Source of the DNA: an uncultured bacterium | GTDB taxonomy: Bacteria; SAR324; NAC60-12 | Assembly (NCBI GenBank): GCA_964010765.1 | Contig: CAXGMD010000032.1 | Coordinates: 1-35,337 of the forward strand | DNA length: 35,337 nt | Reading direction: 5' to 3' | Shown here: one piece after another, positions 7,538 through 33,470 of the stretch | Layout: every line of letters starts with the position of its first letter | Numbering within the stretch: the stretch's first letter is position 1 | Notes under the pieces: model-generated | Databases searched by the model: none | What the model saw: the letters and a program-made list of their open reading frames with translations, nothing else | What the model was told of the DNA's origin: nothing | Program-made: the position numbers and the translations under genes

Positions 7538-8016
7538 TTATTTTGGTGTCATATGATAAATACCTGAACCATCAGGCAGTTGTCCAATGAACCCGCCAGT
7601 AATTTCCAAACCAACGTATTTCTCATAAACTCCAGTCCCCTGTGCCATTGTTGCGCTGTAAACACCGTCTTTGCCAAAAGTACCGTAGAACAGGCTCACA
7701 TCGCCATTGGGATCTACTGATTCACATACACCATTCCACCCAGCATTGATCCGCCAGAGTTTGTGACTACCGTATTATGGCAAGTAGCTTTGACCACTCT
7801 TGGCATTCCTTCTGGTGCTTTTGAATAGTCCCAAATGTCAGTTGATTTCATGTGTGTGATAGAACCTGTCTTTCCGGTAACTGTTTCACTAGAAATGGGT
7901 ATTTGGGTACCAGTAGCTTCCCAACCTTTCATGTGTCCACCTGCGAACACTGAATTTACTGGGATTGTAACTAGCAATGCTACAGATAGTTTCGCTGCAA
8001 TTTTCATCATACTCAT
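7538..8016 (-). pseudogene. Secreted small beta-barrel-like protein (~159 aa) interrupted by a 1-nt frameshift near 7734
   Basis: AAGGAG RBS and signal peptide. Adding one A at GGAATG continues the frame as GGNGVCESVDPNGDVSLFYG...AQGTGVYEKYVG...MTPK to TAA at 7538. Confidence 0.75.
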
Positions 8017-8287
8017 TTGAACACTCCTTGAAGTAAGATAATTTTATATCAATGACTTTTTTGTGAAGTCCAAAATACTCTACATATACTTTGAAAAAGA
8101 TTCTACCTTTTAATTGGACGAAACTTTGTTTTATATGATACTTTTCTGTCGAACAGGATGGGGTTGGGTAAAGAAAATTACAACCAAAAGTCTCCAGTGA
8201 AATCCCTCAGAATTTTCGATAGAGTACTAAAAAACGAGTTTAAGAATTGGTCGACAGTCATCTGTCGAAAACATTTTCACTTACTGC

Positions 8288-9871
8288 TCAATTTGGGACA
8301 CATGCATTAAGGCTGGGTAAACTTTGAATTCCCCTTTGGGCGCGTTCGCTCAATTGATCCATTTCCAAACGGATGCTCTTGAGGGCGCTGTTTTGCTCAT
8401 TAGAAAATAGCTGAATTTCCCGTACCATTGCGGTGGTCTTGGTGATTTCAGGCACATAGTTCTGTAATTCAGCAGTCGCTTCCTCGGCAGTCGCCAAGCA
8501 TTTTTTGGCGATTTGTTGGATATCCTGTGCAGTGAGCTTACTCTGAGTCGCCAGATTGTTGACTTCCTGTGCGACGACTCCGAAACCCTTACCATGCACA
8601 CCTGCTCTTGCAGATTCAACCGAGGCGTTGAAGGCCAACAACGTTGTCTGCTTCGCAATTTCTTGAACTTGCGCAACATTGTCATGAATCGAGTTCATCG
8701 CTGTGTGTAGCTTTTGAATCCGCTGAACATTCATCTGGGTGCTTTCCAGGGCTTGATTCATCATATTGACAGCCTCTTCGGTGTACTTGGCGTTATCTTC
8801 AACCCGTTGGCTGACTTGAGTCACCGCCACTGAGACCTCCTCTACCGTTTTTGCCTGATTTTGTGTGGTTTCAATCATCTGTCCAACCAGATGCCGCAAA
8901 GTTTCGACAGTTTGATTAACTCCATGGCTCATCGTTGAGAACTCTCCTGCTGACAAGACTTCCACTCTGCCAGAAAACTTTCCCTGTTTTAGGTCCTGCA
9001 TCGTGCTATTGATATCGTTCACCAACTCCTGCATGTATTGCATAGAGCTATTGAGAGAGTCCTGAACTTCCCGAATATCCCCTTGATCTTCAGTTTCGAT
9101 TCGTTTACTGAGATCTCCTTTTTGCAGAGCGAAGACCATCTTCTGCACTTGCCCAAACAACTCAGAAATGGTGTCCATCAGAGTATTGTAATGCCGAATT
9201 GGCGAGTCTGGATTAGGATCGATCAGTTCAATGCGTCCTTTGAATGAGTGTGTTTGACTGACTTCAAGCATTGATTGAACAATTGCGCTGCTTTCGCAAA
9301 AATTCTTAGTGTTGTCCACAATGATGGAGGTCAATACTCCTGCTTGAACCACGACAAAAACAGCATGCAGCAGGAAGATGTCAAATCCGGTTCCATAATC
9401 AAAAATAGAGACGGGCATACCGGCAACTGTCCAGCCGGCTTGTTGACAGTAATTCCCAATCAGATGATGCAGGGCTATTACGGTGGCAGCGGTCAGTACT
9501 GGGATTGGATCTCGATAGCGAGGCAGAAAAGACATCGAGACAAAGACGTGAAAGTGCATCTCGATGCGACCCAATCCTTGCTGAATCATGATTGCTGAAA
9601 ACAACATGAGACTGGCCCCAACAACCATCCGACAAACTACGGTGCCCCTGAAGAAAAGATAGGCTAGGCCGACCAGTAAAGTGACGATTCCACCGGCGAT
9701 GAAGCCAAACAAATAAGTCCCCGTTGGCAGAGCAGTTGCGGTACTAACCAGTAACCACTGAACTACAGTCAAAATTAGGAACAGCCGATCTGCTTTGATG
9801 AAATCTTCTTGCAGGGCCTGCTTTACGGATTCAGAAATGTGAGATGAAAACGCATGAAAAAATATTCTCAC
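8288..9871 (-). CDS. Methyl-accepting chemotaxis protein with His-rich multi-TM sensor domain and tandem HAMP-like segments
   Basis: MCP hairpin IAKQTTLLAFNASVESARAGVHGKGFGVVAQEV; N-terminal TM region with EMHFH, LHH and LHA; GAGGAG RBS before the GTG start. Confidence 0.92.
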   Translation of the reverse strand: MRIFFHAFSSHISESVKQALQEDFIKADRLFLILTVVQWLLVSTATALPTGTYLFGFIAGGIVTLLVGLAYLFFRGTVVCRMVVGASLMLFSAIMIQQGLGRIEMHFHVFVSMSFLPRYRDPIPVLTAATVIALHHLIGNYCQQAGWTVAGMPVSIFDYGTGFDIFLLHAVFVVVQAGVLTSIIVDNTKNFCESSAIVQSMLEVSQTHSFKGRIELIDPNPDSPIRHYNTLMDTISELFGQVQKMVFALQKGDLSKRIETEDQGDIREVQDSLNSSMQYMQELVNDINSTMQDLKQGKFSGRVEVLSAGEFSTMSHGVNQTVETLRHLVGQMIETTQNQAKTVEEVSVAVTQVSQRVEDNAKYTEEAVNMMNQALESTQMNVQRIQKLHTAMNSIHDNVAQVQEIAKQTTLLAFNASVESARAGVHGKGFGVVAQEVNNLATQSKLTAQDIQQIAKKCLATAEEATAELQNYVPEITKTTAMVREIQLFSNEQNSALKSIRLEMDQLSERAQRGIQSLPSLNACVPN

Positions 9872-10041
9872 AGGGACTCCTCAATTTTTGGAGCTAGGTT
9901 AGTTGGTTGATTGAAATCCTGATATCTGTAGGGTTCCTATGCGGTCCCTTTACAATTTGTGTCAGTGAGGTTGAACATACTTAGAAAATTGAACCGTGAA
10001 TACTACTGCGAGTCATAAAATAATTGCAAAATTTATCGATC

Positions 10042-10584
10042 ATGTTTGAAAGCAATCACAGACGTCTTTGGTTGGGAGGCACAGTGCTGATTGGGGCAAT
10101 GCTAGGGCTATTGATTGCGCTGCCGTGGTTCCCGATGGCGAGCTCGGGCAAGACAGTCCAACTGGAATTCCTGCAGAGTGAACCTGATCAGGCTTTGCTC
10201 TTCTTTGGATTTCCAGGCTGTGGGGAGATTTGTCCAATCGCGATGGAGCAGCTTCATCTGATCAAGTCGAATGGGGGGTTCCCGGTCCCGATTCAAGTGG
10301 GGTTGGTGAACATAGCAGCAGATCTTCCAGCTTTTACCGTTTCAGAGTATGCCCATTCTTTTGATCCTGAGTTTGCCGGATACCACCTGGATCTTGGAAA
10401 ACTGAGGTCACTGGCTCAAGACTTGGGATTGAACTTACCTGCGACAGAAGGTGGAATTTCAACCAGGTTTTCTCATCCTGATGCCTTGTTCTTACTTCAG
10501 CACGTTGAGGATGAATCTTGGAGTCTGAAGCAGATTTTCTCTGCAACCCGTCTGACCAGACAACAGCTATTGAAAAGTTTGTAA
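10042..10584 (+). CDS. SCO1/SenC-family copper-binding protein
   Basis: N-terminal TM anchor, FFGFPGCGEICP (CxxxC), YA..FDPEF.G and a distal His (FSHPD.LFL). ATG 10042 is preferred over TTG 10024. Confidence 0.87.
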   Translation: MFESNHRRLWLGGTVLIGAMLGLLIALPWFPMASSGKTVQLEFLQSEPDQALLFFGFPGCGEICPIAMEQLHLIKSNGGFPVPIQVGLVNIAADLPAFTVSEYAHSFDPEFAGYHLDLGKLRSLAQDLGLNLPATEGGISTRFSHPDALFLLQHVEDESWSLKQIFSATRLTRQQLLKSL

Positions 10585-10625
10585 AGCTTTCTGAATTCAA
10601 CTTTAGTGAGATTGGTAAATTCCAA

Positions 10626-11696
10626 TTACCTGTCTACTCCGAATCTTTGACGATAGTTAGCAAGCTTCTTTTGCCAACTAGGATGTTCAAGCACTGCTTG
10701 ATTGACCAGTCCAATGGGGGCCTGGCCCTGCATCACAGCTAGAACGGCTTGTACATCTGCTGCACCAATCCCTGCAAAACATTGATCAGTCCAGCACAGA
10801 GCATGAGGTGTGAGGATCACGTTGTCTAACTGCAGAATAGGATCTTCCAACGGGGGAGGCTCCACCTCCAGCACATCAAGTCCAGCCCCAGCAATTCTTT
10901 GCTCCTGGAGAGCTTTTGTCAGAGCAGTTTGATCGACAACAGGACCCCGTGCAGTGTTGATCAAATAGGCGGTGGGTTTCATCAAAGATAGCCGCTCTGC
11001 GTTGACGACGTGTCGAGTACTTTCAGTGAGTGGACAGTTGATCGAAAGTATGTCTGATCGTTGGAACAAATTTTCGAGAGAGACCAGTTCCACGTTTAAT
11101 ACCTGAGCTTTTGTCTCAGTAAGATATGGATCATGGGCAATAAACTTCAGATCGAAGGGAGTCGCCAATCGAAAAAGCTCTGCCCCGATGTTTCCTACTC
11201 CAAGTGACCCCAACGTTTTACCCATCAAACCCACTCCCATGTGCTCAGAGCGCTTTGCAAAACCTGCTGCGCCCAGTCGCGTCAGTTTGTCTTTCACCAT
11301 CAACTTGCCTGTTAGCGCCAACATCATGGTGATGATAGATACCGCTACGGGACGTCGGACTCCATTCGGAGTGATCGCCAGGCCAATGCCTGAGTCCGTA
11401 CAGGCCTCAACATCCACGGAGTCGTAGCCAACTCCGAAGCGTGCCACTAGTGACAACCGGCCTTCAGGATCAATGCTTTGGCGCGAGAATTTGGAGGATA
11501 AGAGTATCAGCGCATCAAACTCTTTGAGTGCCTCAGACGACATCTCTCCATTCACTGGAGCGATATATTCCAGCTGGATGCGCACATCCTTTTGCAGCGG
11601 AGAGAGGTCAAACATCGGATAGGAAGGACTACCGTCGGCTTGCAGAAAATCAGCGCTCAAGGCGATACGAAATTGATCTACATTCGATTCGGACAC
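10626..11696 (-). CDS. D-isomer-specific 2-hydroxyacid dehydrogenase
   Basis: RFGVGYD, GSLGVGNIG Rossmann motif, LINTARG, GAGLDV.E.EP, LTPH. Probable GTG start at 11696 after GGGAGA. Confidence 0.93.
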   Translation of the reverse strand: MSESNVDQFRIALSADFLQADGSPSYPMFDLSPLQKDVRIQLEYIAPVNGEMSSEALKEFDALILLSSKFSRQSIDPEGRLSLVARFGVGYDSVDVEACTDSGIGLAITPNGVRRPVAVSIITMMLALTGKLMVKDKLTRLGAAGFAKRSEHMGVGLMGKTLGSLGVGNIGAELFRLATPFDLKFIAHDPYLTETKAQVLNVELVSLENLFQRSDILSINCPLTESTRHVVNAERLSLMKPTAYLINTARGPVVDQTALTKALQEQRIAGAGLDVLEVEPPPLEDPILQLDNVILTPHALCWTDQCFAGIGAADVQAVLAVMQGQAPIGLVNQAVLEHPSWQKKLANYRQRFGVDR

Positions 11697-11857: not shown

Positions 11858-12724
11858 TCAGAGCTTGTAAATCGCTTCAATTTGGCCTACATGTGCTGAA
11901 GCAAATTTGAAGACACACCCTGCATCTGGTTGGCTTGATTTAGAAGTTTCATCTAAATTGGCCCAAGCTGAGGTCACGCGCAATTCAGTACAATTCGCAC
12001 CACCAAAAGCTGGACAACTAACCTGACTGGCTGAAGCATGAAGCTCGGTAAGCAATGATCCGTCAGGACGATATGCTGCTACTTTGGAGGCTCCCCAAAG
12101 GGCTATCCAAACGTTACCTTGTGAATCAACAATAGCACCGTCAGGTATAATATTTGGCTCAAAAGAAATAAAGACATGACGTTCAGATAAAGGTAGTCCT
12201 GTCTGAGGGTTTAATTCTACACGCCAGACTAAATTTAGCGCACTGTCTGCAAAGTAACCGGTGGAACCATCAGGTGTAAAACAGATTGAATTGGGTATAG
12301 TGACGCTGGAATAAAGTAATTGAATTTTACCTGATCTGACATGATAGATAGACCCTGCACCTCGTTCAGCATTGTGAGCCATTGTCCCGAACCAAAAAGA
12401 CCCACTTGGATGAACTCTACAATCGTTACTACGTGTCAGAGAATTCTCGGATTCAATCTCTAAATAACTCTCCCAACTTTTGCTCTCAAGATCCAAAATG
12501 TGAAGACCATCCTCAACTGCAACAAGAAGTCGATTAGTGTCAATCCGCGCAGCCGCACTTGCCATACCAGGACAATCAATTACCTTAACCGATTGATCAT
12601 CAGTTTGTTCGTAAAACTTAGAATTAAGAATATCAAACCAGCAAAAACTATGACGCTCAGGATGCCAAAAGATACCCTCCCCTAATTGACAGATAGGTCC
12701 GTCACACACTTCCATCAATTTCAT
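11858..12724 (-). CDS. SMP-30/gluconolactonase/LRE family sugar lactonase
   Basis: LGEGIFW, RSND, IPNSICF, PDGA.VD..G and CPAFGG motifs. Confidence 0.92.
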   Translation of the reverse strand: MKLMEVCDGPICQLGEGIFWHPERHSFCWFDILNSKFYEQTDDQSVKVIDCPGMASAAARIDTNRLLVAVEDGLHILDLESKSWESYLEIESENSLTRSNDCRVHPSGSFWFGTMAHNAERGAGSIYHVRSGKIQLLYSSVTIPNSICFTPDGSTGYFADSALNLVWRVELNPQTGLPLSERHVFISFEPNIIPDGAIVDSQGNVWIALWGASKVAAYRPDGSLLTELHASASQVSCPAFGGANCTELRVTSAWANLDETSKSSQPDAGCVFKFASAHVGQIEAIYKL

Positions 12725-12833
12725 ATATATCCCTAAAGCAGATGAACTAGGAAGATTTGGTAAAAACCTAAATTAAAATGTCTAGGTTTCGTTAATACGG
12801 AATCAAAGGGAATCGACAAAATAAATATCACTC

Positions 12834-13889
12834 TCAAATTATTAAGTTTGGAGCTATCCACATTCTTTCAGTATTTGATTTCTCCATTGCGATTGCAACT
12901 TTCATCTCCCCCAAAGAGTATTCAGCACTAGCATCTGGAGTTTTTCCTGAGACGATACAAGAATAAAAGTCATGAAACTGATGATAAAAGGAAGACACGT
13001 ATCCGTGTCTGTCAAACAACTGAAACCCATCAGGATGTTCTTCATCAAAAACATATACTCCATAACCTTCAGGCCCAACCATCACCTCACCACTTGTGCC
13101 TGTAATTCTGAATGGGTAATCTTTTGAGAACATAGTCTTTTCAGTAAGTATACCTTCAAAAATTGCTGTTATAGAATTGTCAAAAGTAAATATTGCCTGA
13201 GACAAACTTTCTCCTTCCATCAGGGGATGAGGATAGGAAAATTTAGAAAATAGTTCTCTAATTTCACCAAACCAAAATCTTAATGGACGAATCCAATGTG
13301 CGCCACCATCAATTGTGATTCCACCTCCAGTAGCTGCTAAAGAATATCTCCAAGCCTTGGTTGGAGTGTCATCCTGCAAAACACTATAACTATTAAAAAT
13401 ATCTTTATCAGCTGCCTGTCTAAATGAGGCTTTTGCGGTAACAATCTCACCAATTATACCCTCTGAAAGCAAATCTTTAACTTTTAAGATCTCAGGCCAA
13501 TATTGGCTATTCTCAGCAATCATAAGGACTTGATCAGAGCTTCTTGAACGCTCCAATATTCTTTGTGCAGAATCAAGGGTATGAGCCAAAGGCTTTTCAA
13601 GAAGAACATTAAGTTTTTGACTAAAAGCTCTAGTAGCAAGTTCTTCGTGCAAATAATGGGGAACAGAAATAATTACGGTATCCAAAGCCGTCTCATGGGC
13701 AGCTTCTTCGAGTTGAGTGAATATTTTGCAGGACAACTTAAATGATTTTTTAAATTTTTCAGCATTCAAGAGACTGGTGTCAATTAGTGCAACAATTTCA
13801 ATCTTGTTATTTGTCTCTAAAACATATTTAATAATTGACTCAGCATGTACAGAAGCTATTCTACCACATCCAACAAATGCTAACTTCAT
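12834..13889 (-). CDS. Gfo/Idh/MocA family oxidoreductase
   Basis: VGCGRIA, EKP motif, GGG..IDGGAHWI. Confidence 0.92.
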   Translation of the reverse strand: MKLAFVGCGRIASVHAESIIKYVLETNNKIEIVALIDTSLLNAEKFKKSFKLSCKIFTQLEEAAHETALDTVIISVPHYLHEELATRAFSQKLNVLLEKPLAHTLDSAQRILERSRSSDQVLMIAENSQYWPEILKVKDLLSEGIIGEIVTAKASFRQAADKDIFNSYSVLQDDTPTKAWRYSLAATGGGITIDGGAHWIRPLRFWFGEIRELFSKFSYPHPLMEGESLSQAIFTFDNSITAIFEGILTEKTMFSKDYPFRITGTSGEVMVGPEGYGVYVFDEEHPDGFQLFDRHGYVSSFYHQFHDFYSCIVSGKTPDASAEYSLGEMKVAIAMEKSNTERMWIAPNLII

Positions 13890-13909
13890 AAAGGACTACT
13901 AATGAAAAA

Positions 13910-14884
13910 TTATATTCGAGAAAGAAATCGCTGTTTTTGGGCGTCGATAATGAGAGCTAAAAGAATTATAAAACCCCTGACTGCATTCACCCAATAAGGA
14001 TCAACATTCATCAAATTTAATGCATTATTAATAATTGCAAGTAGAAGAACTCCAGCAAGAGCTCCAATTAGAGAACCTTCCCCACCTTTGAGACTAACTC
14101 CACCAATCACTGCAGCTGCTACAACGTTCAAAGTAAGTTCAGCTCCAAGATTCGGAACCGATGTTTCTAACTTACCAAGAAGCATCCATCCTGCAAAGGC
14201 AGCAAGGAAACCACTTACTGCATAAACAAAAAGAACAATTCTCTTCTGATCGATACCAACTGTTTGGGCAGTCTTGATATTGCTACCTACGAAAAGAACC
14301 TGTCTTCCAATAGTTGTTTGCTTTATAAAGAAGTGAAAAATCAAAAACACAATAATCGTCGTGATGATTGGCATTGGAATTCCGTAGATTTGGCCTCCAC
14401 CAAGAAAATTAAATGAACTTGGTGTTCCGGGCATCACAGCACCCTCACTAATCACATAACCAAATCCTCTCAGAACAAGTTGCATTGCCAGAGTGACGAT
14501 AAAGAAATTCATACCAACATAAGCTATTAATAGACCATTAATAAAACCGAAAAATGTCCCTAAAGTAAGCATAATTGGAACAACTAAAACAGGTGCTAGT
14601 TCGACGCCCAGGCCACCTGCTTGTGCAAAGGTAGATTCTGCTGCTGGCAACATCAACCATGCAGCAATTACAGTTACTATAGAGACATTGCCTTCTGCAG
14701 AAAGGTCTAAATTTTTTGCAAAAAGGCAGAGAGCTTGGCCTATCACCATAATTCCTAGAACGCTTCCACCGATAAGGATATTCTGAACATTAGTTGGGGA
14801 AGAGAAATTCGGAATTAAAAGTGAGAAGCAAAGAAAGGTGGCGATTAAAACATACCAGATGAAGTATTTAAACAAATGTTGCAT
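13910..14884 (-). CDS. Sugar ABC transporter permease (RbsC/CUT2 type)
   Basis: LDLS, FIVTLAM and AAAVIGGVSLKGGEG motifs. Confidence 0.92.
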   Translation of the reverse strand: MQHLFKYFIWYVLIATFLCFSLLIPNFSSPTNVQNILIGGSVLGIMVIGQALCLFAKNLDLSAEGNVSIVTVIAAWLMLPAAESTFAQAGGLGVELAPVLVVPIMLTLGTFFGFINGLLIAYVGMNFFIVTLAMQLVLRGFGYVISEGAVMPGTPSSFNFLGGGQIYGIPMPIITTIIVFLIFHFFIKQTTIGRQVLFVGSNIKTAQTVGIDQKRIVLFVYAVSGFLAAFAGWMLLGKLETSVPNLGAELTLNVVAAAVIGGVSLKGGEGSLIGALAGVLLLAIINNALNLMNVDPYWVNAVRGFIILLALIIDAQKQRFLSRI

Positions 14885-14908
14885 AATTTATTGAATTGGT
14901 CAGCGAAC

Positions 14909-16399
14909 TTATGAGTTTACTTGTTCCATTGATAACATAATCTTTTCAAATGAAAAATTTTCATGTGTAAATTCTTCCACCAATCTATTTTCATTCATCA
15001 CAATTATACGGTCACAAATATTAATCATTTCTCTTATTTCTGAAGACGCAATTAGAATACTAATTTTATCCAAAGATAAATCTTCAATAATTCTATAAAT
15101 ATCATTTTTTGCATTCACATCAACGCCTTGTGTTGGCTCTTGCAACAGCATTAATTTAGGATTAATTACAGATAACCTACCGAAAATGATCTTTTGCTGA
15201 TTACCTCCACTGAATAAGTCAATGGGTTTTTCAAAATCAGGAGGGTGAATTTTTAATTTTTCAATTTGATCAATAGCTATTTTTCTTTCCTTTAAATTAC
15301 TAATCAGCGTTAAATTTGAAATTTTATTCATAATAGAAACAGTAATATTTTCTGCAAGAGAACGAAAATTGATTAATCCATTTTCATGCCTATCATGAGT
15401 TAAGTATGCGACACCTTGTTTCATTGATTCTGAAGGTTTTCTGCTCTGAAAATCTTTTCCTTCAAGCTTAATTTCACCAATGCCTCTTCTATCCATCCCA
15501 TAGAGACTTTGCATCAACTCATTCAAGCCCGAAGATCCAAGGCCACAAATACCCAAAATTTCTCCTTCATAAATATTAAAGTTTATGTTCTCAAAGTAAC
15601 CGCGCCTCGTTAAATTTTTAACCTCCAAAATCTTTTTCTTGTTACTAATATAATTTTGCCTCTCATACGAACCTATATTTTTTCCAATCATTAAATTTAT
15701 TAATTTTTCTATGTTTAATTCACTTACTTGGTGTGTCCCTTTGCTTTTCCCATCTACAAGCGTGGTTACCTTGTCGCAAATTTCGAAAATTTCCTCTAAA
15801 TGGTGAGAAATAAAGATGAAGCTTATCCCTTTTTGTTTTTGCTGATTTATGAATTTGAATAATAAACTTCTTTCTCTTTTATTTAAAACAGCAGTTGGTT
15901 CATCTAAAATTATTATTTTTGAATCGTAAAGAACTGCCTTAGAAATGATCAGCATTGTTCTTTGCTCAACACTTAGCTCTTGGACAGAAATTTTACAATC
16001 GAGATCAAGCCCCATACTACTCAGAGCTTCATTTGCCCTTTTATAAACTTGCTTCCAGTTAATGATTCCATACTGATTCCTTGGGAGATTTCCACAGAAT
16101 AAATTCTCTGCCACAGAGAGAGTATTTAGCATTCGGAGCTTTTGTGGTACGAAAGTAATTCCCAGTTCAATCATAGTTTTCGGCTGTGCATTTTCAATCT
16201 TGTTATCCTTGAATACAATTTCCCCTTCATCAGCATCGATGATACCCATAACAATGTTCATTAGTGTTGATTTCCCTGCACCATTTTTACCAACGATTCC
16301 ATGAATTTCATTCTCATAGAATGTAACTGATACCGTGGATAACGCTTGATTACCAGGGAATCTCTTGCTGATATCGACTAATCTTAAAATTTCTTTCAT
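14909..16399 (-). CDS. Sugar ABC transporter ATP-binding protein (RbsA type, two NBDs)
   Basis: GKNGAGKST, LDEPT, FSGGNQQK, EPTQGVDV. Confidence 0.94.
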   Translation of the reverse strand: MKEILRLVDISKRFPGNQALSTVSVTFYENEIHGIVGKNGAGKSTLMNIVMGIIDADEGEIVFKDNKIENAQPKTMIELGITFVPQKLRMLNTLSVAENLFCGNLPRNQYGIINWKQVYKRANEALSSMGLDLDCKISVQELSVEQRTMLIISKAVLYDSKIIILDEPTAVLNKRERSLLFKFINQQKQKGISFIFISHHLEEIFEICDKVTTLVDGKSKGTHQVSELNIEKLINLMIGKNIGSYERQNYISNKKKILEVKNLTRRGYFENINFNIYEGEILGICGLGSSGLNELMQSLYGMDRRGIGEIKLEGKDFQSRKPSESMKQGVAYLTHDRHENGLINFRSLAENITVSIMNKISNLTLISNLKERKIAIDQIEKLKIHPPDFEKPIDLFSGGNQQKIIFGRLSVINPKLMLLQEPTQGVDVNAKNDIYRIIEDLSLDKISILIASSEIREMINICDRIIVMNENRLVEEFTHENFSFEKIMLSMEQVNS

Positions 16400-16402
16400 T
16401 TG

Positions 16403-17467
16403 CTAACTGTATTTCCAGTAGAATTGATCTTCTTGGCCAACTTTCGATCTAGAGAATTTGTTGATTGTGAGAATTCTTTGCTGGTATTTATTTCTCAATG
16501 CTTCAATTAGTACAGCTAGTAGTAAGAGAAGGCCCCTACTTACTTCAATCCAGAATGGTGAAACACGCATGATATTGAGGCCTGTATCTAGAATTGCCCA
16601 TAGCAAAACACCTCCAAAGGCTCCCACAACATTCCCTCTTCCTCCATAAATACTCATCCCACCAATAATTGCTGCAGCATGAACCGTAAATATTATGCCA
16701 TGCCCCATTGTTGGTGTAGCACTATTTAATCTTCCAGCTATTATTATTCCTGCGATTGCAGCACATAGTCCCGCTATCATGTAGACAATGATAACAGTTC
16801 GATCCACGTTTATTCCATTATTCCTAGCGATCTCTTTATCAGCACCGATCGCATACATATTTCTTCCAAACTGGGTGTACCTTGTATGAAAGTATGCAAG
16901 TATAAATGCTAAGATGACTAATGTTCCTGAAACTGGTATTACTAATTTTCCTCGGAAACCTTCTAAACCGAATTTTATGATTGAATCATTGCCTAACCAC
17001 CTAAACCCATCAGGGAAAAAGCTGATTGTTGTTCCGGGTGAAATTCCATATGTTAAACCCCTCAACAGAAATAACATTGCAATGGTAACAATTAGATTAT
17101 TAACTTTTATCTTTGTTATTAAGTATCCATTGAATAAACCAATCTTTATTCCAATGATGAGCATGATCATGATTGCCCACAGATAGTTTATTCCAATTCC
17201 TAGTCCTCCGTTTTCTGACGTTACCATTAATAAAGCGGCGACCATTGCAGTAAAAGCCAATGTGGATTCAACTGATAAATCAAAGTTCCCTGTAATAAAT
17301 GTGTACGATTGACTTAAGACTAGAAATCCAAGAGCAGAAATACTGATTAAGATATTACTGATAGTAACAGGATTGAGGAATCTATCGGAGGCGATTGAAA
17401 AGAAAATAAATGCTGATAAGACCAAGAGCCAGATTAAATTATTTAATATTAAGTTGAGGAATCTCAT
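16403..17467 (-). CDS. Sugar ABC transporter permease (RbsC/CUT2 type)
   Basis: FDLSV, T.FGR..YAIG, AAAIIGG.S..GG.G. Confidence 0.92.
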   Translation of the reverse strand: MRFLNLILNNLIWLLVLSAFIFFSIASDRFLNPVTISNILISISALGFLVLSQSYTFITGNFDLSVESTLAFTAMVAALLMVTSENGGLGIGINYLWAIMIMLIIGIKIGLFNGYLITKIKVNNLIVTIAMLFLLRGLTYGISPGTTISFFPDGFRWLGNDSIIKFGLEGFRGKLVIPVSGTLVILAFILAYFHTRYTQFGRNMYAIGADKEIARNNGINVDRTVIIVYMIAGLCAAIAGIIIAGRLNSATPTMGHGIIFTVHAAAIIGGMSIYGGRGNVVGAFGGVLLWAILDTGLNIMRVSPFWIEVSRGLLLLLAVLIEALRNKYQQRILTINKFSRSKVGQEDQFYWKYS

Positions 17468-17508
17468 TTGGTGTAATGTTGTGAGTTATTATTTTTCCCC
17501 TTTAATTT

Positions 17509-17543
17509 GAGCACTGGTCCGGAATGTATCCGTTCCAGTACTC
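17509..17543 (-). promoter_or_regulatory. Stem-loop downstream of the binding-protein gene (likely mRNA stabiliser)
   Basis: The minus-strand RNA GAGUACUGG-AA-CGGA-UACAU-UCCG-GA-CCAGUGCUC folds with a G-U pair specific to the minus strand. Confidence 0.55.
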
Positions 17544-17556
17544 TTGATTCCAACAC

Positions 17557-18561
17557 CTACTTAATATTACCCCAAAGGGCCGGGTTATATACATTCGCGG
17601 AAGTGACATTAGATGTCGCTAGATTTAGCATTAATCCCGTGTCGCTTTCGAAAATCCTTGCTGGGGACCAGGGCGCACCCTGCTGGATCACACTTCCTGT
17701 TTGAATCTTCTCATTGTTCAGTTCCTTCTCGATCCAGTTGACTATGATTCCGAAGTCCGGCAATGGCTGGCTTGAAGCTTGGTCACTCCAGCCGTCTTTG
17801 ATTGCCTGCAATCCATCACTGCAACCGTCTACAGCAACTCTAAAGATGTGATCTTTGTGTCCTCTTTTAAAGTTCTTGTTCAGTTGATCCAGTGCTGCCG
17901 AGATTGGTCTCGTTCCCACACAATCTGAATGGTAATAAATCCCATCGATAGCATTTGAACCGACAACATCCAGAGTCGCTTGCCCAAAATTTTCAGCTTG
18001 CCACTGTGTTGGTTTGCTGATCACTTTGATTTCGGGATGCTTTTTCATTACATCATTAAATCCACCTCCTCTTAATTGGGCGACATTCTGACCCATATTC
18101 CCCTGCAGTTCCAATACTGTTCCCTCGGCTTTTGAATACTTGACCGTGAGGAGTCTGACTAATTCTTCGGCTGCCTGCTGGCCTGCTAAATAGTTGTCAG
18201 CCTGTACAGTCATATTCACCTTACAACCAATGGTCGACCGGTCTATAGTGTAGAAAAGAATTCCGGCATCTTGGGCTCTTTCAACTGAGGAACAAACCGC
18301 TTTACTATCTACTGGTACTGTGACAATTGCATCGACACCTTGTGCGATGAAATTGTCCAATTGGTTGGCTTGCTGTTGTGCATCGGAATTAGCATTTGAT
18401 ACAACTACTTCCCAACCTTTTTCCTCTGCTTTTGAGACAAATCCATTCATGATGGCTCTTTGTCCGCCATCAAGAGCCGGTGCACCGAATCCGATCAATA
18501 TTTCCGCATGAGCTACTGTACCGATAACGATACTTGCCATTGCTAGTATGAAATTCCTCAT
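17557..18561 (-). CDS. Sugar ABC transporter substrate-binding protein (RbsB-like)
   Basis: Signal peptide, IAQGVDAI, IDR, DNYLAG, R.GGF, VDG. Confidence 0.92.
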   Translation of the reverse strand: MRNFILAMASIVIGTVAHAEILIGFGAPALDGGQRAIMNGFVSKAEEKGWEVVVSNANSDAQQQANQLDNFIAQGVDAIVTVPVDSKAVCSSVERAQDAGILFYTIDRSTIGCKVNMTVQADNYLAGQQAAEELVRLLTVKYSKAEGTVLELQGNMGQNVAQLRGGGFNDVMKKHPEIKVISKPTQWQAENFGQATLDVVGSNAIDGIYYHSDCVGTRPISAALDQLNKNFKRGHKDHIFRVAVDGCSDGLQAIKDGWSDQASSQPLPDFGIIVNWIEKELNNEKIQTGSVIQQGAPWSPARIFESDTGLMLNLATSNVTSANVYNPALWGNIK

Positions 18562-18627
18562 TTTATACCTCTATTAAAAAATTATTATTAAAATTATTGA
18601 CCTTTAGCTTGTATTACATATTTCCTC

Positions 18628-19404
18628 CTATTTTAAATGTTTTATCATTTCTATTCCATCCTTTAATGCCTTTTGGAAAACTAATACTTCATGCCCATAA
18701 CCAAGTACCGAAAAACCTAATTCTCTAAACTGTTCTAGCATAGCCTGATTTATGTCCAGAAACCCAAGTGGTTTGTTTGTTATTTTACCCGCCTCCGAAA
18801 CCTTTTTTATACTTTCAGTAAATAACTCTTGTTTGAAATCTCCTAACGACCCCAATGAATCAGTTAAGTCAAAATGACCCAGCCAACCCATGTCAATTCC
18901 TTCAACTGAGAAAATTTCTTCGCAATTCTGAACTCCTTCTGCGCTCTCGATCATTGCAATGAGAATATTATTTTTATTTGCTTCTCTAATCTTTTTTTCT
19001 GGATCATCTTGGCTGTAATGGTCGTGTGCAACATTGAAAGCGATTCCTCTCTCACCAATTGGCCTATACTTAGCTAGTTTTACAATTCTTTTTGCTTCTT
19101 CAGCAGATTTGACATTCGGCACCATGATGCCTTTCACACCTGCATCTAGGTATTGTGAAATTGAATTTTGATCTAAACTAGGCACTCTGACGATTGGATA
19201 AAGATTTAATTCCCTTCCTGCAGCAATCATCATTTTGACTGTTTCTATGCCCACACCGCTGTGTTCGGTATCATAAATCACAAAATCTGCACCACACTCT
19301 TTAAGAATTTTAGGCAGACCAGGATTAAAAAATTCAAAAATCATTATCCCAGTAACTAATTCTTTTGATTGTAAATTCTCTAAAAAGGAATAATTTGAAC
19401 TCAT
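18628..19404 (-). CDS. HpcH/HpaI class II pyruvate aldolase family protein
   Basis: DFVIYDTEH, VRVP, LDAG..GIMVP, P.G.RG, MIES..G, G.FDL. Confidence 0.92.
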   Translation of the reverse strand: MSSNYSFLENLQSKELVTGIMIFEFFNPGLPKILKECGADFVIYDTEHSGVGIETVKMMIAAGRELNLYPIVRVPSLDQNSISQYLDAGVKGIMVPNVKSAEEAKRIVKLAKYRPIGERGIAFNVAHDHYSQDDPEKKIREANKNNILIAMIESAEGVQNCEEIFSVEGIDMGWLGHFDLTDSLGSLGDFKQELFTESIKKVSEAGKITNKPLGFLDINQAMLEQFRELGFSVLGYGHEVLVFQKALKDGIEMIKHLK

Positions 19405-19462
19405 ATTTAAATTTTATTTAATGAATTGAATAACAGCAGTATAGAATTAGTTATTTTGGTAC

Positions 19463-20196
19463 TTAAAAGCTTTCCCTTCTATTGGTTATTTCCCAATAGA
19501 CTTCAGCAACTTGATCGAGATGTCTTTCCATTAGATTTTCAGCCAAATCTGCATTTCGACTGATGATTGCTTCAGCAATTTCCTCGTGTGCCCTATAAGC
19601 AATTTTATTTTCACCAGGTGAGCTTAAGGCTATGTGTCTTTGGTCAATTAACCATTTAGAAATAGCAGCATGAATTCCTCTAAAGATGGTATTTTTTGGA
19701 ATCACTGCTAAGACATAATGAAAATCCACATCTGTTTGAGCAAACATTTTGGAATTATTCATTGCATTCTTATTGACTTCCAACGCTCTCATCAACACTT
19801 GAAGATCATCTTCTGTTGCATATTTTGCTGCATATCTTACCAGGCCACATTCGAAGAACTTTCTGGCTGCTTGAAAGTTCTTTACTCCGTCAGGATATGC
19901 TAGCCAGTGGCGGGCTGCGGTCGACAATGATTCAACAATGTGTTCCGCAGTTGGTTCAATGACACGAGTTCGCCCTCCCCCACTTACTGAAACAAATCCA
20001 GCTTTCTGCAAGGTAAGCAAAGCTTCTCGAATTGCTGGTCTTCCCACTCCATAAATTTCCATCAGTTCTCTTTCTGATGGTAAAGAGTCTCCCGGTCGAA
20101 TCTCACCTGAATGAATCAGCTGTTGAATTCTTTCAACAACTTCCTCGTAAAGTCGTTTCCTTTTAATAGGATTTTTTTAAGCGGTATACTTGTCAT
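19463..20196 (-). CDS. GntR/FadR-family (NanR-like) regulator with an apparent 1-nt frameshift in an A7 tract at 20172-20178
   Basis: The HTH KRLYEEVVERI...IRPGDSLPSERELM..YGVGR.AIREAL lies in frame upstream of the ORF-track start but has no standard start codon. ATG 20196 joins it if A7 were A8. FCD domain with D..FH. Confidence 0.85.
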
Positions 20197-31889: not shown

Positions 31890-32720
31890 CTATGGACTCT
31901 TGGGAGAGCTGGTAGCGGGTTTGGTTTCCTCGTTCTCTTTGGGTTCCTCCTTCGATTCTTTTGCACTCAAAGTAGGCTCAGGTAAATTTCTTCTTGTTTC
32001 GAAGTAAGCAGAGGCAATGATTCCCGAGGGTACCGCAAAGACACCGATACCGAGAAGTGCTACGAGAGAGCCCAACAATTGTCCAAGGAAACTCGTTGGG
32101 GTAGCTCCACCAAATCCTGCTGTAAATGGCGTGCTGACAGCCCAAGACATAACTCTGAGAATGCTTCCAAACGCATCTGGATTTTCATGACGTTCTGCAT
32201 AGTACATCATGCTGGATACGACAAAGAGCAGGCAAATCATCACAATCAGTGACTTAATGATTTCCAGTAATTTTTCTCTGAGTGTTCGCTTGAGATCATC
32301 AAAGGCCCTGGCGTAATGAAATCGCCGATAGATGCGAAGCAAGCGAAGTATTCGTAAAAACCGTATATCGGCAATGCCGTGCAGAAAAAAAGGTAGAATT
32401 GCCAAGAAGTCCATCAAGGCATAGGGGGTCAGTAGGTAGCGGATGCGCCCATGCTGACTAGCAAACTTTGTAACTGCAGGGCAGGCGTAGAGTCGAAGCA
32501 AAAATTCTAAGGTAAAAATAGTGACGGAAAAGGCATCAAACCAGAAGAAGGTGTCCCCGTATTCTGCTTCAAACTCACTGTCCGTTTCCAGTACGTAGAT
32601 CAGCAGGTCTAGTCCGATCAGGACAATTACCAGCCGATCCACCCACTTGCCAACGGGGGTCTCATGGTTTTCCAGGATTCTCCAGATCAGTTGCTGCCGC
32701 TTTTTGACTTCTTCATCCAT
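31890..32720 (-). CDS. 6-TM voltage-gated K+ channel-like protein with a degenerate filter (TAGFGG)
   Basis: S4 RFLRILRLLRIYR, MYYAE...P..FGSI, pore region WAVSTPFTAGFGGATP. ATG 32720 follows GAGGA. Confidence 0.85.
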   Translation of the reverse strand: MDEEVKKRQQLIWRILENHETPVGKWVDRLVIVLIGLDLLIYVLETDSEFEAEYGDTFFWFDAFSVTIFTLEFLLRLYACPAVTKFASQHGRIRYLLTPYALMDFLAILPFFLHGIADIRFLRILRLLRIYRRFHYARAFDDLKRTLREKLLEIIKSLIVMICLLFVVSSMMYYAERHENPDAFGSILRVMSWAVSTPFTAGFGGATPTSFLGQLLGSLVALLGIGVFAVPSGIIASAYFETRRNLPEPTLSAKESKEEPKENEETKPATSSPKSP

Positions 32721-32754
32721 CGTCAATTCCTCTACTGATTGTTGGCGATCTATT

Positions 32755-33470
32755 TCAATCTAGTGTTTGTCCACAGTGTCCACAGATTTTCTGGGAGGTC
32801 TTCTCTGAGGTTTTGGTAGATTCGACAGGTTCATGTGACTCTGCAAAGCCTGCAGCCAGAATTCCAGTAGGAATCGCAAACAGACCAATCCCAATGATGG
32901 CTGAAGTGGCTCCTAGGAAGCGACCCAGAGTAGTAATCGGAGTCACATCCCCATAACCCACAGTGGTCAGTGTAGCGACTGCCCACCAAATGGACTCGAC
33001 GATGCTACCAAATTTATCGGGTTGTGCTTCGTGCTCTGCATAGTACATCAGGGTTGAGGTGAAAAAGAGCAGGGAGAGCATCACGATCAGCGAAGAGAGC
33101 AACTCTTCTGATTTGCCAGCAAAAATCTTGGTCAACCTTTGTAGAGACCGTGAGTAGTGGAAGCCTTTCAAAAATCGCAGGACCCTGAGGATTCTCAAGA
33201 AACGAGCCTCGAAGGCAAAGAAGCTAAAGATCAATTGCAGATAGAAAGGCAGAATTGCCAATAAATCGACCAATCCATGCAGAGAGAATAGGTAGCGTAA
33301 CCTTCCAAACTTGCCGGAAAATCGCTGTTCTGATGGACAAGCATAGAGTCGAGCAGCCAATTCAACCGTAAAAATGCCAATGGAAATTGCGTCAAAGGTG
33401 CGGAACCAATGACCGAATTCGGCAGCAAGATCAGGATCAGTTTCCAAAACGAAGGCAATCAGGTTCAGAC
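32755..33470 (-). pseudogene. 6-TM voltage-gated K+ channel with canonical TVGYGD filter, 5'-truncated within S1
   Basis: WWAVATLTTVGYGDVTP, S4 repeat, C-terminal CGHCG. The frame extends upstream as LNLIAFVLETD to about 33470 and then runs into unrelated sequence and a stop. Confidence 0.82.

Follow-up and report, generated by a model that had tools for sequence, protein, structure and literature searches.

In the DNA of an uncultured SAR324 bacterium, a chemoreceptor gene whose membrane-embedded input domain carries five conserved histidines lies head-to-head with a gene for a SCO1/SenC-family protein, and the products of this conserved gene pair probably constitute a copper-dependent two-protein bacterial sensor. 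The six-helix, five-histidine membrane domain is undescribed; neither the domain nor an SCO-receptor pair was found in the literature searched, which lay largely outside subscription journals. No part of bacterial signalling is less well understood than its membrane-embedded input domains, and the way in which sulfur-oxidisers, magnetotactic bacteria, Leptospira and others locate oxic-anoxic interfaces is largely unexplained. The pair occupies the following positions in the window, by which is meant the whole 35,337-nt stretch of DNA analysed.

8288..9871, minus strand: chemoreceptor gene of 527 aa, encoding a 6-TM five-histidine sensor domain followed by a pair of HAMP domains and the MCP signalling domain (ORF and Pfam)
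9311..9871, minus strand: N-terminal membrane sensor domain, residues 1-187 (AlphaFold2 model, relatives and positive-inside analysis)
8894..9187, minus strand: HAMP_2 domain, residues 229-280, and HAMP domain, residues 285-326 (Pfam)
8321..8770, minus strand: MCP signalling domain, residues 368-517 (PF00015, 90.3 bits)
9548..9562, minus strand: E104-M-H106-F-H108, where TM4 begins on the periplasmic side (conservation in alignments)
9464..9469, minus strand: H135-H136, in TM5 (conservation in alignment)
9365..9367, minus strand: H169, close to where TM6 begins on the periplasmic side, in the motif LHAxFV (conservation in alignment)
9872..10023, no strand: divergent intergenic spacer of 152 nt (longest-ORF starts)
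10024..10584, plus strand: SCO1/SenC-family gene of 186 aa, encoding an N-terminal membrane anchor and a periplasmic thioredoxin-fold domain (PF02630, profiles and AlphaFold2)
10219..10233, plus strand: C66-G-E-I-C70, the CxxxC copper/thiol motif (invariant in the partner alignment)
10474..10476, plus strand: His151, the third, distal ligand of the copper site in Sco proteins (invariant; aligned to the DH motif of 2k6v)

The ORF translations placed E104 to H108, H135-H136, H169 and CGEIC exactly where the earlier, sequence-only reading of this DNA had located them, but the head-to-head gap that it gave as about 170 bp is 152 nt when measured between longest-ORF starts. The HAMP-like segments that it saw after the transmembrane region correspond to the two Pfam HAMP domains, the intact CGEIC and distal histidine ascribed to the SCO protein were found as C66, C70 and H151, and a scan of 24 further large ORFs and six ORFs agreed with it that the window holds no che or oxidase gene. 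Its description of the receptor as an orphan is correct within the window and incorrect genome-wide, where seven CheW-domain matches were found in three CheA/CheW clusters, all on other contigs. Its MCP and HAMP domains, and the Che pathway encoded elsewhere in the genome, give the protein the features of a methyl-accepting chemotaxis protein. Residues 1-215 gave zero Pfam matches even at E ≤ 10, and no NCBIfam model exists for the membrane domain. An Rfam scan of the window returned zero matches, and a promoter and terminator scan of positions 8100-10700 found no consensus sigma-70 promoter in the spacer and no more sites over the whole region than in shuffled sequence.

The AlphaFold2 model of residues 1-215 (pLDDT 95.6, pTM 0.90) consists of six helices (14-43, 53-74, 78-98, 103-119, 122-144 and 163-207) with no extramembrane domain, which bears out the earlier claim that the receptor lacks a large periplasmic ligand domain. 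Lysine and arginine are enriched in the N-terminus, in loops 2 and 4 and in the segment after TM6, and by this positive-inside analysis both termini of the sensor domain are cytoplasmic. Because the output domains must be cytoplasmic, the conserved histidines are placed in the periplasmic leaflet, and the outer half of the bilayer, towards the periplasm, holds the conserved residues Q97, R102, E104, H106, H108, H135, H136, Q143 and H169 together with M89 and M105. A Foldseek search of the PDB with the sensor model gave nothing at E ≤ 1e-3, and a wide VIA-align search matched generic 6-TM signalling bundles only; the 6-TM bundles of ImcA (8wcn) and of membrane adenylyl cyclases (8sl3, 6r3q) are among the nearest known systems. 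The closest ESM Atlas clusters consist of hypothetical proteins without a name, and the named clusters HAMP, MASE11, MASE7 and 6TM_PilS, which score 0.75-0.80, serve as leads only.

In an alignment of 72 sequences, H106, H136 and H169 are invariant (H169 in 72 of 72), as are E104 and F107, whereas H108 and H135 are kept in 71 and 68 sequences, respectively (94-99%). Conservation of at least 90% was found for each of Q97, R102, D28, Y119, Q143, H108 and H135, and a nearly invariant block, FSAIxIQQxLGRIEMHFHVF, surrounds the start of TM4. In a Pseudomonas aeruginosa plasmid homologue, serine replaces H108. The same pattern of histidine conservation was repeated in the separate alignments A1, A2 and A4, and, on the strength of these alignments, the sensor-domain histidines are not there by chance. 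The alignments show no invariant cysteine in the sensor domain.

To judge from its relatives, the sensor domain is a large modular input domain with four kinds of output, PP2C phosphatases included. A phmmer search with the domain against 1.84 billion representatives returned 2586 proteins at E ≤ 1e-3, of which 664 reached E ≤ 1e-10 and 108 reached E ≤ 1e-30. The 71 word-indexed homologues carry MCP, HisKA-HATPase, GGDEF-EAL or SpoIIE outputs, and among 86 representatives 37 carry MCPsignal, 27 HisKA and HATPase, 4 GGDEF, 4 SpoIIE and 2 EAL domains, with no Pfam model lying over the membrane part in any of the 86. Named hosts include Sulfurimonas, Sulfuricurvum, Thiomargarita, Parabeggiatoa, Magnetococcus and Leptospira, and are largely gradient-dwelling organisms.

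Of 80 loci taken from species-representative genomes, 69 have an SCO-like gene next to the sensor gene, lying directly upstream on the same strand in 62, divergently in 5 and convergently in 2; by longest-ORF calls, 25 of the 62 same-strand pairs overlap by 4 nt. For a distant subgroup of MCPs of about 505 aa, SCO adjoins the sensor in 61 of 80 metagenome loci, which are not independent because near-duplicate contigs are included. Within the phylum of the window, the two genes are adjacent in 11 of 15 places and in three different gene arrangements (10 of 14 counting other genomes only). Upstream, downstream and divergent orders of the pair have all been seen. Named carriers of the pair are Campylobacterota, Gammaproteobacteria, Balneolaceae and one MAG labelled Deltaproteobacteria/MYXO, and on the Marinobacter nanhaiticus plasmid pD15-8W the gene directly upstream of a homologous MCP is independently labelled "SCO family protein" by RefSeq. 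An adjacent SCO gene was absent from 11 of the 80 genome loci (3 with less than 500 nt of upstream DNA), from 19 of the 80 metagenome loci (5 with 300 nt or less upstream) and from 4 of the 15 places in the phylum, and no alternative conserved neighbour was found at such loci. No SCO-sensor fusion was seen, as PF02630 did not occur in the Pfam columns of the 71 homologues or of the 120 listed of 751. When neighbours at the 80 genome loci were clustered, the sensor itself was recovered in 80, SCO in 69 and the next cluster in 17; SCO is the only conserved neighbour of the sensor gene. The central proposal of the sequence-only reading, that SCO and receptor form a two-gene module, is thus supported on both counts: the pairing is kept far beyond close relatives, and all five histidines are conserved across homologues.

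Adjacency might also reflect regulation, with the sensor controlling genes for copper homeostasis or oxidase assembly and sco being co-regulated cargo. SCO genes commonly occur dispersed in respiratory and metal operons, which would suit this explanation. It is nevertheless highly improbable: the same pair occurs with chemotaxis, kinase, c-di-GMP and phosphatase outputs, and outputs so varied cannot all regulate sco transcription; no other copper or oxidase gene is conserved nearby; and the SCO protein of the window is itself a divergent paralogue that exists beside a canonical one. The latter, encoded in the same genome, scores 143.7 bits on PF02630, compared with about 24.6-24.8 bits for the window protein against a cut-off of 22.8, and from this comparison the window SCO is taken to be dedicated to the receptor.

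Despite that weak match, the partner is, by its profiles and its predicted structure, a true SCO protein with a thioredoxin-like Sco fold and an intact Cys-x3-Cys...His copper site. Every one of the 68 partner sequences keeps G62, C66, C70 and H151, and PF02630 was matched by 39 of 39 partners (best E 2.1e-16). A profile of the partners gave 15 matches to solved Sco proteins, the best being Thermus Sco (2k6v) at 2.8e-26, with the CxxxC and distal histidine of the partners aligned to the same motifs of 2k6v. The AlphaFold2 model of the window protein has a pLDDT of 90.8, and its Foldseek ranks 1-19 are occupied by Sco proteins or Aquifex aq_2194 (E 3e-7 to 1e-4; two entries within these ranks were left out as duplicates).

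The preferred reading, which we consider about as probable as all others taken together, is that the two genes encode a copper-dependent membrane sensor and its dedicated SCO chaperone or co-sensor. SCO would pass copper to the histidine cluster, or share or exchange copper with it, and the resulting metal centre would be the sensing site. TM6 would shift when this centre changed, whether through a ligand (O2, sulfide, NO or CO), through a redox step between Cu(I) and Cu(II), or through copper itself being loaded or lost. As TM6 is predicted to continue straight into the HAMP domains, such a shift could control how active the MCP signalling domain is and, through it, one of the three CheA/CheW systems of the genome; in other organisms the same input module drives histidine kinases, c-di-GMP enzymes and PP2C phosphatases. 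Copper delivery from an SCO protein to a membrane histidine site has precedent, since cbb3 oxidase depends on SenC for its all-histidine CuB centre and NosZ depends on SenC2 for its CuA site (PMC7558416). The same review adds that SCO proteins can be thiol-disulfide oxidoreductases rather than copper donors (PMC7558416). A thiol-reductase role toward the sensor is unlikely here, judged by the alignments, because the sensor domain has no invariant cysteine.

If copper is indeed the cofactor, the receptor would represent a new class of SCO chaperone client beyond oxidases and NosZ, would show bacteria using a new chemistry to sense gases or redox state, and would account for the "extra" divergent SCO paralogues present in many genomes. 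A domain with thousands of representative members and a near-obligate SCO partner leads to a concrete cofactor hypothesis, and even with a different cofactor the two-gene module merits definition as a family. In its widest form the proposal is tentative, being possible rather than probable: the window receptor would be the first example of a widespread class in which a dedicated SCO paralogue installs one or two copper ions in a membrane histidine cluster, and O2, sulfide or some other small molecule binds reversibly at that site. Such receptors would be the copper counterpart of heme and hemerythrin gas sensors, and would steer chemotaxis, two-component and c-di-GMP signalling in sulfur-oxidising and microaerophilic gradient organisms.

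A different division of labour between the two proteins must be weighed. The SCO-like protein could be the primary periplasmic sensor, either of free Cu(I)/Cu(II) or of the thiol/disulfide state of its own CxxxC motif, and the 6-TM domain mainly a transducer that reads SCO by contact, with the histidines serving as a surface for docking or relay instead of holding a cofactor permanently. The tight 1:1 operon coupling, with its 25 four-nucleotide overlaps, is more in keeping with a co-receptor needed in equal amounts than with a chaperone that acts catalytically, adjacency holds through three gene arrangements, and the redox roles reported for SCO proteins point the same way. A distant branch of the sensor family pairs instead with a different anchored protein, DUF6436, which bears a CxC motif; this suggests that the constant feature is a periplasmic thiol protein plus a transmembrane domain. 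By hhalign (0.2%), DUF6436 is not detectably homologous to the SCO partners, and it is absent from both locus sets and from the phylum sample. Five near-invariant, membrane-buried histidines and a glutamate, however, exceed what a docking surface usually needs, and some sensor genes have no adjacent partner at all.

Complex prediction bears on both of these readings. The sensor domain and SCO scored 0.52 (runs of 0.65, 0.45 and 0.52), compared with 0.00 for the best of 3 controls, and the runs share at least 62% of contacts with an SCO pLDDT of at least 74. The mark applied to this score is passed by 116 of 157 solved complexes and by 2 of 215 mismatched pairs, and passing scores of 0.60 or less came from only 18 of the 157 solved complexes and from both mismatched pairs that passed. 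The predicted complex thus lends weak support to an association of the two proteins, and to SCO as the sensor, but no contacts or interface were reported with it. Sensor and SCO sequences also co-diverge (Mantel r 0.70, reached by 0 of 999 permutations), to which no weight is given for binding because co-divergence is expected for any two linked genes. Taken with the points above, a sensing role for SCO with the membrane domain as its transducer is rather unlikely.

Five histidines in one leaflet could equally hold heme or another metal as copper. In the specific form proposed for Htr8, the membrane domain would bind heme b through pairs of conserved histidines and sense O2, NO or CO directly, leaving SCO as an accessory redox or assembly factor only. 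HtrVIII (Htr8), the aerotaxis transducer of Halobacterium salinarum, is like the window receptor in having 6 TM segments, no extracytoplasmic ligand domain and an MCP output, a likeness of architecture. It is listed with 6 TM and with O2 as attractant (PMC3579733), and its TM segments likely bind heme (PMC13401364). Unlike the window receptor, Htr8 has no SCO link in the literature examined, and no haloarchaeal protein name occurs among the 71 homologues or the 120 listed of 751, most of which are unnamed. The shared architecture and the gradient-dwelling habit of the named hosts speak for heme. On the other side, the conserved neighbour is a copper-site protein with no known heme-handling gene conserved nearby, the five histidines, as judged from the model and topology, all lie in one leaflet, unlike those of transmembrane di-heme cytochromes b, and homology to heme-copper oxidase subunit I is undetectable. 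Direct heme sensing is accordingly quite unlikely.

The undetectable homology to subunit I also concerns the "oxidase-subunit-I-like" character suggested in the sequence-only reading, which as a statement of homology did not survive: hhalign of the domain profile against COX1 of the same genome gave a probability of 0.2%, and a profile search of all PDB sequences with the sensor domain found no oxidase at E ≤ 10. Together with the Pfam search at E ≤ 10, these comparisons rule out homology to COX1 (PF00115) at the sequence level. No oxidase stood among the best 50 VIA-align matches or the Foldseek matches listed, an absence with which a shared fold is compatible. The sensor domain has 6 helices compared with 12 in heme-copper oxidase subunit I. 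The H-F-H and H-H of its helices echo the ligand motifs of COX1 helix X and helix VII, and their order is reversed relative to COX1.

Three further systems are related in concept. The MHYT domain (PF03707) is a membrane-embedded, His/Met-bearing signalling input proposed to be a copper-binding gas sensor and predicted to bind a metal near the outer face; both it and the sensor domain are His/Met-bearing membrane inputs, but their motifs differ, the Pfam search of residues 1-215 at E ≤ 10 gave no match to it, and no SCO protein dedicated to MHYT is known to us. In the ethylene receptor ETR1, a membrane domain of three TM helices with Cys/His ligands needs copper from dedicated trafficking, by the P-type ATPase copper pump RAN1, before it can bind its small gaseous ligand; ETR1 and the sensor domain are unrelated in sequence. 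The RegB/PrrB - SenC/PrrC - RegA/PrrA arrangement of Rhodobacter likewise links an SCO-family gene to a multi-TM sensor. Its SCO protein has been implicated in the copper assembly of cbb3 oxidase (PMC7558416). A part in signal flow to the kinase has also been ascribed to it. To our knowledge, the histidine-rich motif set GRIEMHFH, HH and LHA is not a feature of RegB. In three kinase members of the sensor family, NCBIfam matches cover the kinase core only, none beginning before residue 173, and the best 25 listed include no RegB/PrrB model. Unlike the RegB/PrrB locus, the window-type module also serves MCP, GGDEF/EAL and PP2C outputs.

The receptor and SCO genes stand head to head across a 152-nt spacer, and the features of the pair are as follows.

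8288-9871, minus strand: receptor gene, an ORF of 527 aa
Receptor residues 229-280, minus strand: HAMP_2 domain (Pfam)
Receptor residues 285-326, minus strand: HAMP domain (Pfam)
Receptor residues 368-517, minus strand: MCP signalling domain (Pfam, 90.3 bits)
9548-9562, minus strand: EMHFH motif of the receptor
9464-9469, minus strand: HH motif of the receptor
9365-9367, minus strand: H169 of the receptor
10024-10584, plus strand: SCO partner gene, an ORF of 186 aa
10219-10233, plus strand: CGEIC motif of the SCO partner

The positions of the three motifs and of H169 are exactly those given by the sequence-only reading, and a Pfam scan of the window ORFs bore out its claim that che and oxidase genes are absent from the window, the remainder of which carries transporter genes and sugar and organic-acid genes. 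The genome (3.86 Mb in 266 contigs, 92% complete) contains one COX1 gene, and its seven CheW-domain matches, which fall into three CheA/CheW clusters, all lie outside the window. A 100-aa ORF (7714-8016, minus strand) with a signal-peptide-like N-terminus and without a Pfam match is found between an MMPL transporter gene and the receptor gene.

NCBIfam models match the C-terminal half of the receptor only, and residues 1-215 match zero Pfam families even at E<=10. Used as the query in a word-indexed search, these residues returned 71 proteins, each with the domain at its N-terminus, in which the outputs were MCP, HisKA-HATPase kinase (some hybrid), GGDEF-EAL and PP2C/SpoIIE phosphatase. Run exhaustively against 1.84 billion cluster representatives, phmmer gave 2586 proteins at E<=1e-3, of which 664 reach E<=1e-10 and 108 reach E<=1e-30. 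When 86 of these representatives were scanned with Pfam, MCPsignal was present in 37, HisKA with HATPase in 27, a receiver domain in 14, GGDEF and SpoIIE in 4 each, EAL in 2 and HD in 1, and none had a Pfam model over the membrane part. The N-terminal region is a large, modular sensor domain; neither it nor the SCO–receptor pair is described in the full-text literature searched, which takes in few of the subscription journals.

Homologue alignments contain, in order, the recurrent blocks FSAIxIQQxLGRIEMHFHVF, RYKD, HHLxFNYxQ and FNYGxGxDIxxLHAxFV. I96, G101, E104, H106, F107, F110, H136 and H169 are invariant, and conservation reaches 90% or more at D28, M89, S92, Q97, R102, H108, Y119, H135 and Q143, so that all five histidines picked out by the sequence-only reading are kept across homologues; no cysteine is invariant in these alignments. 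For a membrane domain, such conservation is extreme. Decayed copies were seen at two homologous loci, one with an in-frame stop within the domain (L032:5001-5570) and one with the receptor broken into three ORFs (L084:4995-6527).

An AlphaFold2 model of the sensor domain from a 50-sequence alignment (pLDDT 95.6, pTM 0.90) predicts six helices (residues 14-43, 53-74, 78-98, 103-119, 122-144 and 163-207), the sixth extending into the HAMP region. Because basic residues cluster in the N-terminus, loop 2, loop 4 and the segment after TM6, and the output domains are cytoplasmic, the topology is deduced to be N-in, six TM and C-in. This places H106 and H108 at the start of TM4 on the periplasmic side, H135 and H136 in the outer part of TM5 and H169 in TM6, six residues from the periplasm, and thus all five histidines within the outer leaflet; the invariant QQxLGRIE falls in the short periplasmic loop 3.

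The partner is a true SCO, though a divergent one. The protein from the window matches PF02630 at a borderline 24.6-24.8 bits (cut-off 22.8), and 39 of 39 aligned partners match the family, with a best E of 2.1e-16. A profile of the partners matches 15 solved Sco sequences, including Thermus 2k6v (2.8e-26), plant, human and yeast SCO1/2, Bradyrhizobium ScoI and Bacillus YpmQ. The AF2 model (pLDDT 90.8) consists of an N-terminal helix (residues 6-35) and a thioredoxin-like domain, for which the best 19 Foldseek matches listed (ranks 1-19, two duplicates left out) are Sco proteins or Aquifex aq_2194. All 68 partners compared have G62, C66, C70 and H151. The genome also encodes a canonical SCO on another contig (G000:C75; L089:1420-1986), which scores 143.7 bits to PF02630; a BLASTP alignment of the canonical and sensor-linked proteins spans just 21 residues, around the CxxxC.

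Scanning species-representative genomes for the motif GRIE[MW]HFH yielded 361 relatives that were confirmed; of their loci, the best 80 were searched by tblastn with the SCO protein from the window. A SCO homologue adjoins the sensor gene in 69 of these 80 loci, with sensors 38-52% identical to that of the window. The pairing reaches well beyond close relatives. The SCO homologue lies directly upstream on the same strand in 62 (overlapping the sensor start by 4 nt in 25, by longest-ORF calls), is divergent in 5 (the three close relatives of the window and two Campylobacterota loci) and convergent downstream in 2; of the 11 SCO-less loci, three have <500 nt of DNA on the upstream side. The hosts with names include Sulfuricurvum, Sulfurimonas, Sulfurospirillum, Thiomargarita, Parabeggiatoa, Ca. 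Venteria, Woeseiaceae, Balneola, Aliifodinibius, Rhodohalobacter, Fodinibius and a MAG labelled MYXO. All-against-all clustering of neighbouring ORFs at the 80 loci left SCO as the sole conserved neighbour (present at 69 loci; the runner-up cluster is found at 17, all of them Sulfuricurvum-type). For a distant subgroup of ~505-aa MCPs (Salicola and Leptospira type), 61 of 80 metagenome loci (the best 80 of 332 relatives) have a SCO-like ORF immediately upstream by an HMM of the partners; these 61 are not independent because many of the contigs are near-duplicates; five of the 19 SCO-less loci have <=300 nt upstream. In an unselected sample, the 88 species genomes available for the phylum of the window, 13 genomes carry the domain, at 15 places, and SCO adjoins it at 11, in three arrangements: divergent (the window's genus), upstream on the same strand and downstream on the same strand. 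That adjacency survives rearrangement is the best indication that the two genes are functionally linked, and co-regulation alone is a very improbable account of the pairing. RefSeq independently labels the gene upstream of a homologous MCP on Marinobacter nanhaiticus plasmid pD15-8W a 'SCO family protein'; there the pair is followed by a Crp/Fnr-family regulator and a GGDEF-EAL gene (L172:5220-6008), a possible sign of an oxygen or redox setting in that species. The nearest system-level precedent is the gene arrangement of the regB-senC-regA (prrBCA) locus; NCBIfam models give no hint of a RegB-like membrane part in kinase members of the sensor family.

No substitute conserved neighbour was found at the SCO-less loci. 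On P. aeruginosa plasmid p3 (L173:2249-3948), a 315-aa protein is clearly homologous to the sensor domain (hhalign 99.7%) and reads EMHFS for EMHFH, with Ser for the second His of HFH. It is preceded by a DUF6436 protein (PF20029, 147 bits) that carries a membrane anchor, a CPC motif and, at its C-terminus, CFC. In Pseudoalteromonas sp. CF6-2 (L175:2423-4388), a DUF6436 gene lies 14 nt downstream of the MCP gene. Homology between DUF6436 and the SCO partners is not detectable, and DUF6436 is the partner of a more distant sensor branch. Since this branch pairs with DUF6436 instead of SCO, the constant theme may be an anchored periplasmic cysteine-motif protein together with this membrane domain.

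Partners evolve faster than sensors (mean pairwise distance 0.76 versus 0.54), and their distance matrices correlate (Mantel r 0.70, reached by 0 of 999 permutations), which demonstrates co-inheritance and not binding. A complex predictor gave the sensor domain and SCO 'weak support' at 0.52 (runs 0.65, 0.45 and 0.52; best of three controls 0.00), on a scale where 116 of 157 solved complexes reach the mark, as do 2 of 215 mismatched pairs, and where just 18 of the 157 and both passing mismatches reach it at 0.60 or under. Contact agreement between the runs was at least 62% and partner pLDDT at least 74, and the predictor reported no interface. Given the strong synteny prior, the prediction is no more than mildly favourable to direct contact.

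The sensor H-F-H and H-H resemble the motifs that supply ligands in helices X and VII of COX1, in reversed order. Homology to oxidase subunit I was considered and rejected: hhalign gives 0.2% against the genome's own COX1, and a PDB profile search returned noise only at E<=10. The two-gene module proposed by the sequence-only reading is real, and its oxidase-like sensor does not hold as homology. A table in PMC3579733 gives HtrVIII 6 TM and O2 as attractant, and its TM segments are likely heme-binding (PMC13401364); the six-TM architecture is shared, with Htr8 a candidate relative of the sensor, and an Htr8-like heme-binding sensor with SCO as accessory seems unlikely.

The module joins a divergent SCO with an intact copper site to a six-helix sensor with five conserved outer-leaflet histidines, and is modular and widespread. 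We read the sensor as a probable membrane input domain with a metal cofactor and a SCO partner of its own. The chances are about even that the His cluster holds copper supplied by or exchanged with SCO, and that this centre would be the sensing site, acting through TM6 and the HAMP domains on the output. Alternatively, SCO would itself be the primary periplasmic Cu or redox sensor and the membrane domain its transducer, which is possible but rather doubtful. The review PMC7558416 reports that SenC is needed for the all-His CuB centre of cbb3 oxidase and SenC2 for the CuA site of NosZ, and that Sco proteins may also act as thiol oxidoreductases. The ecology of those hosts that have names, which are sulfur oxidisers and magnetotactic and microaerophilic bacteria, invites the speculation that the signal is O2 or sulfide. 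The main interest of the module lies in a cofactor hypothesis that is directly testable.

Elsewhere in the window, a low-GC block at 12000-20000 (GC 0.34-0.39, against 0.44-0.52 in the flanks) contains a GFO/IDH/MocA oxidoreductase, a sugar-type ABC transporter, an HpcH aldolase and an FCD-family regulator, and may be an acquired catabolic island. Tandem Ion_trans (voltage-gated-type channel) genes of 278 and 230 aa are found at 31890-33447 on the minus strand.
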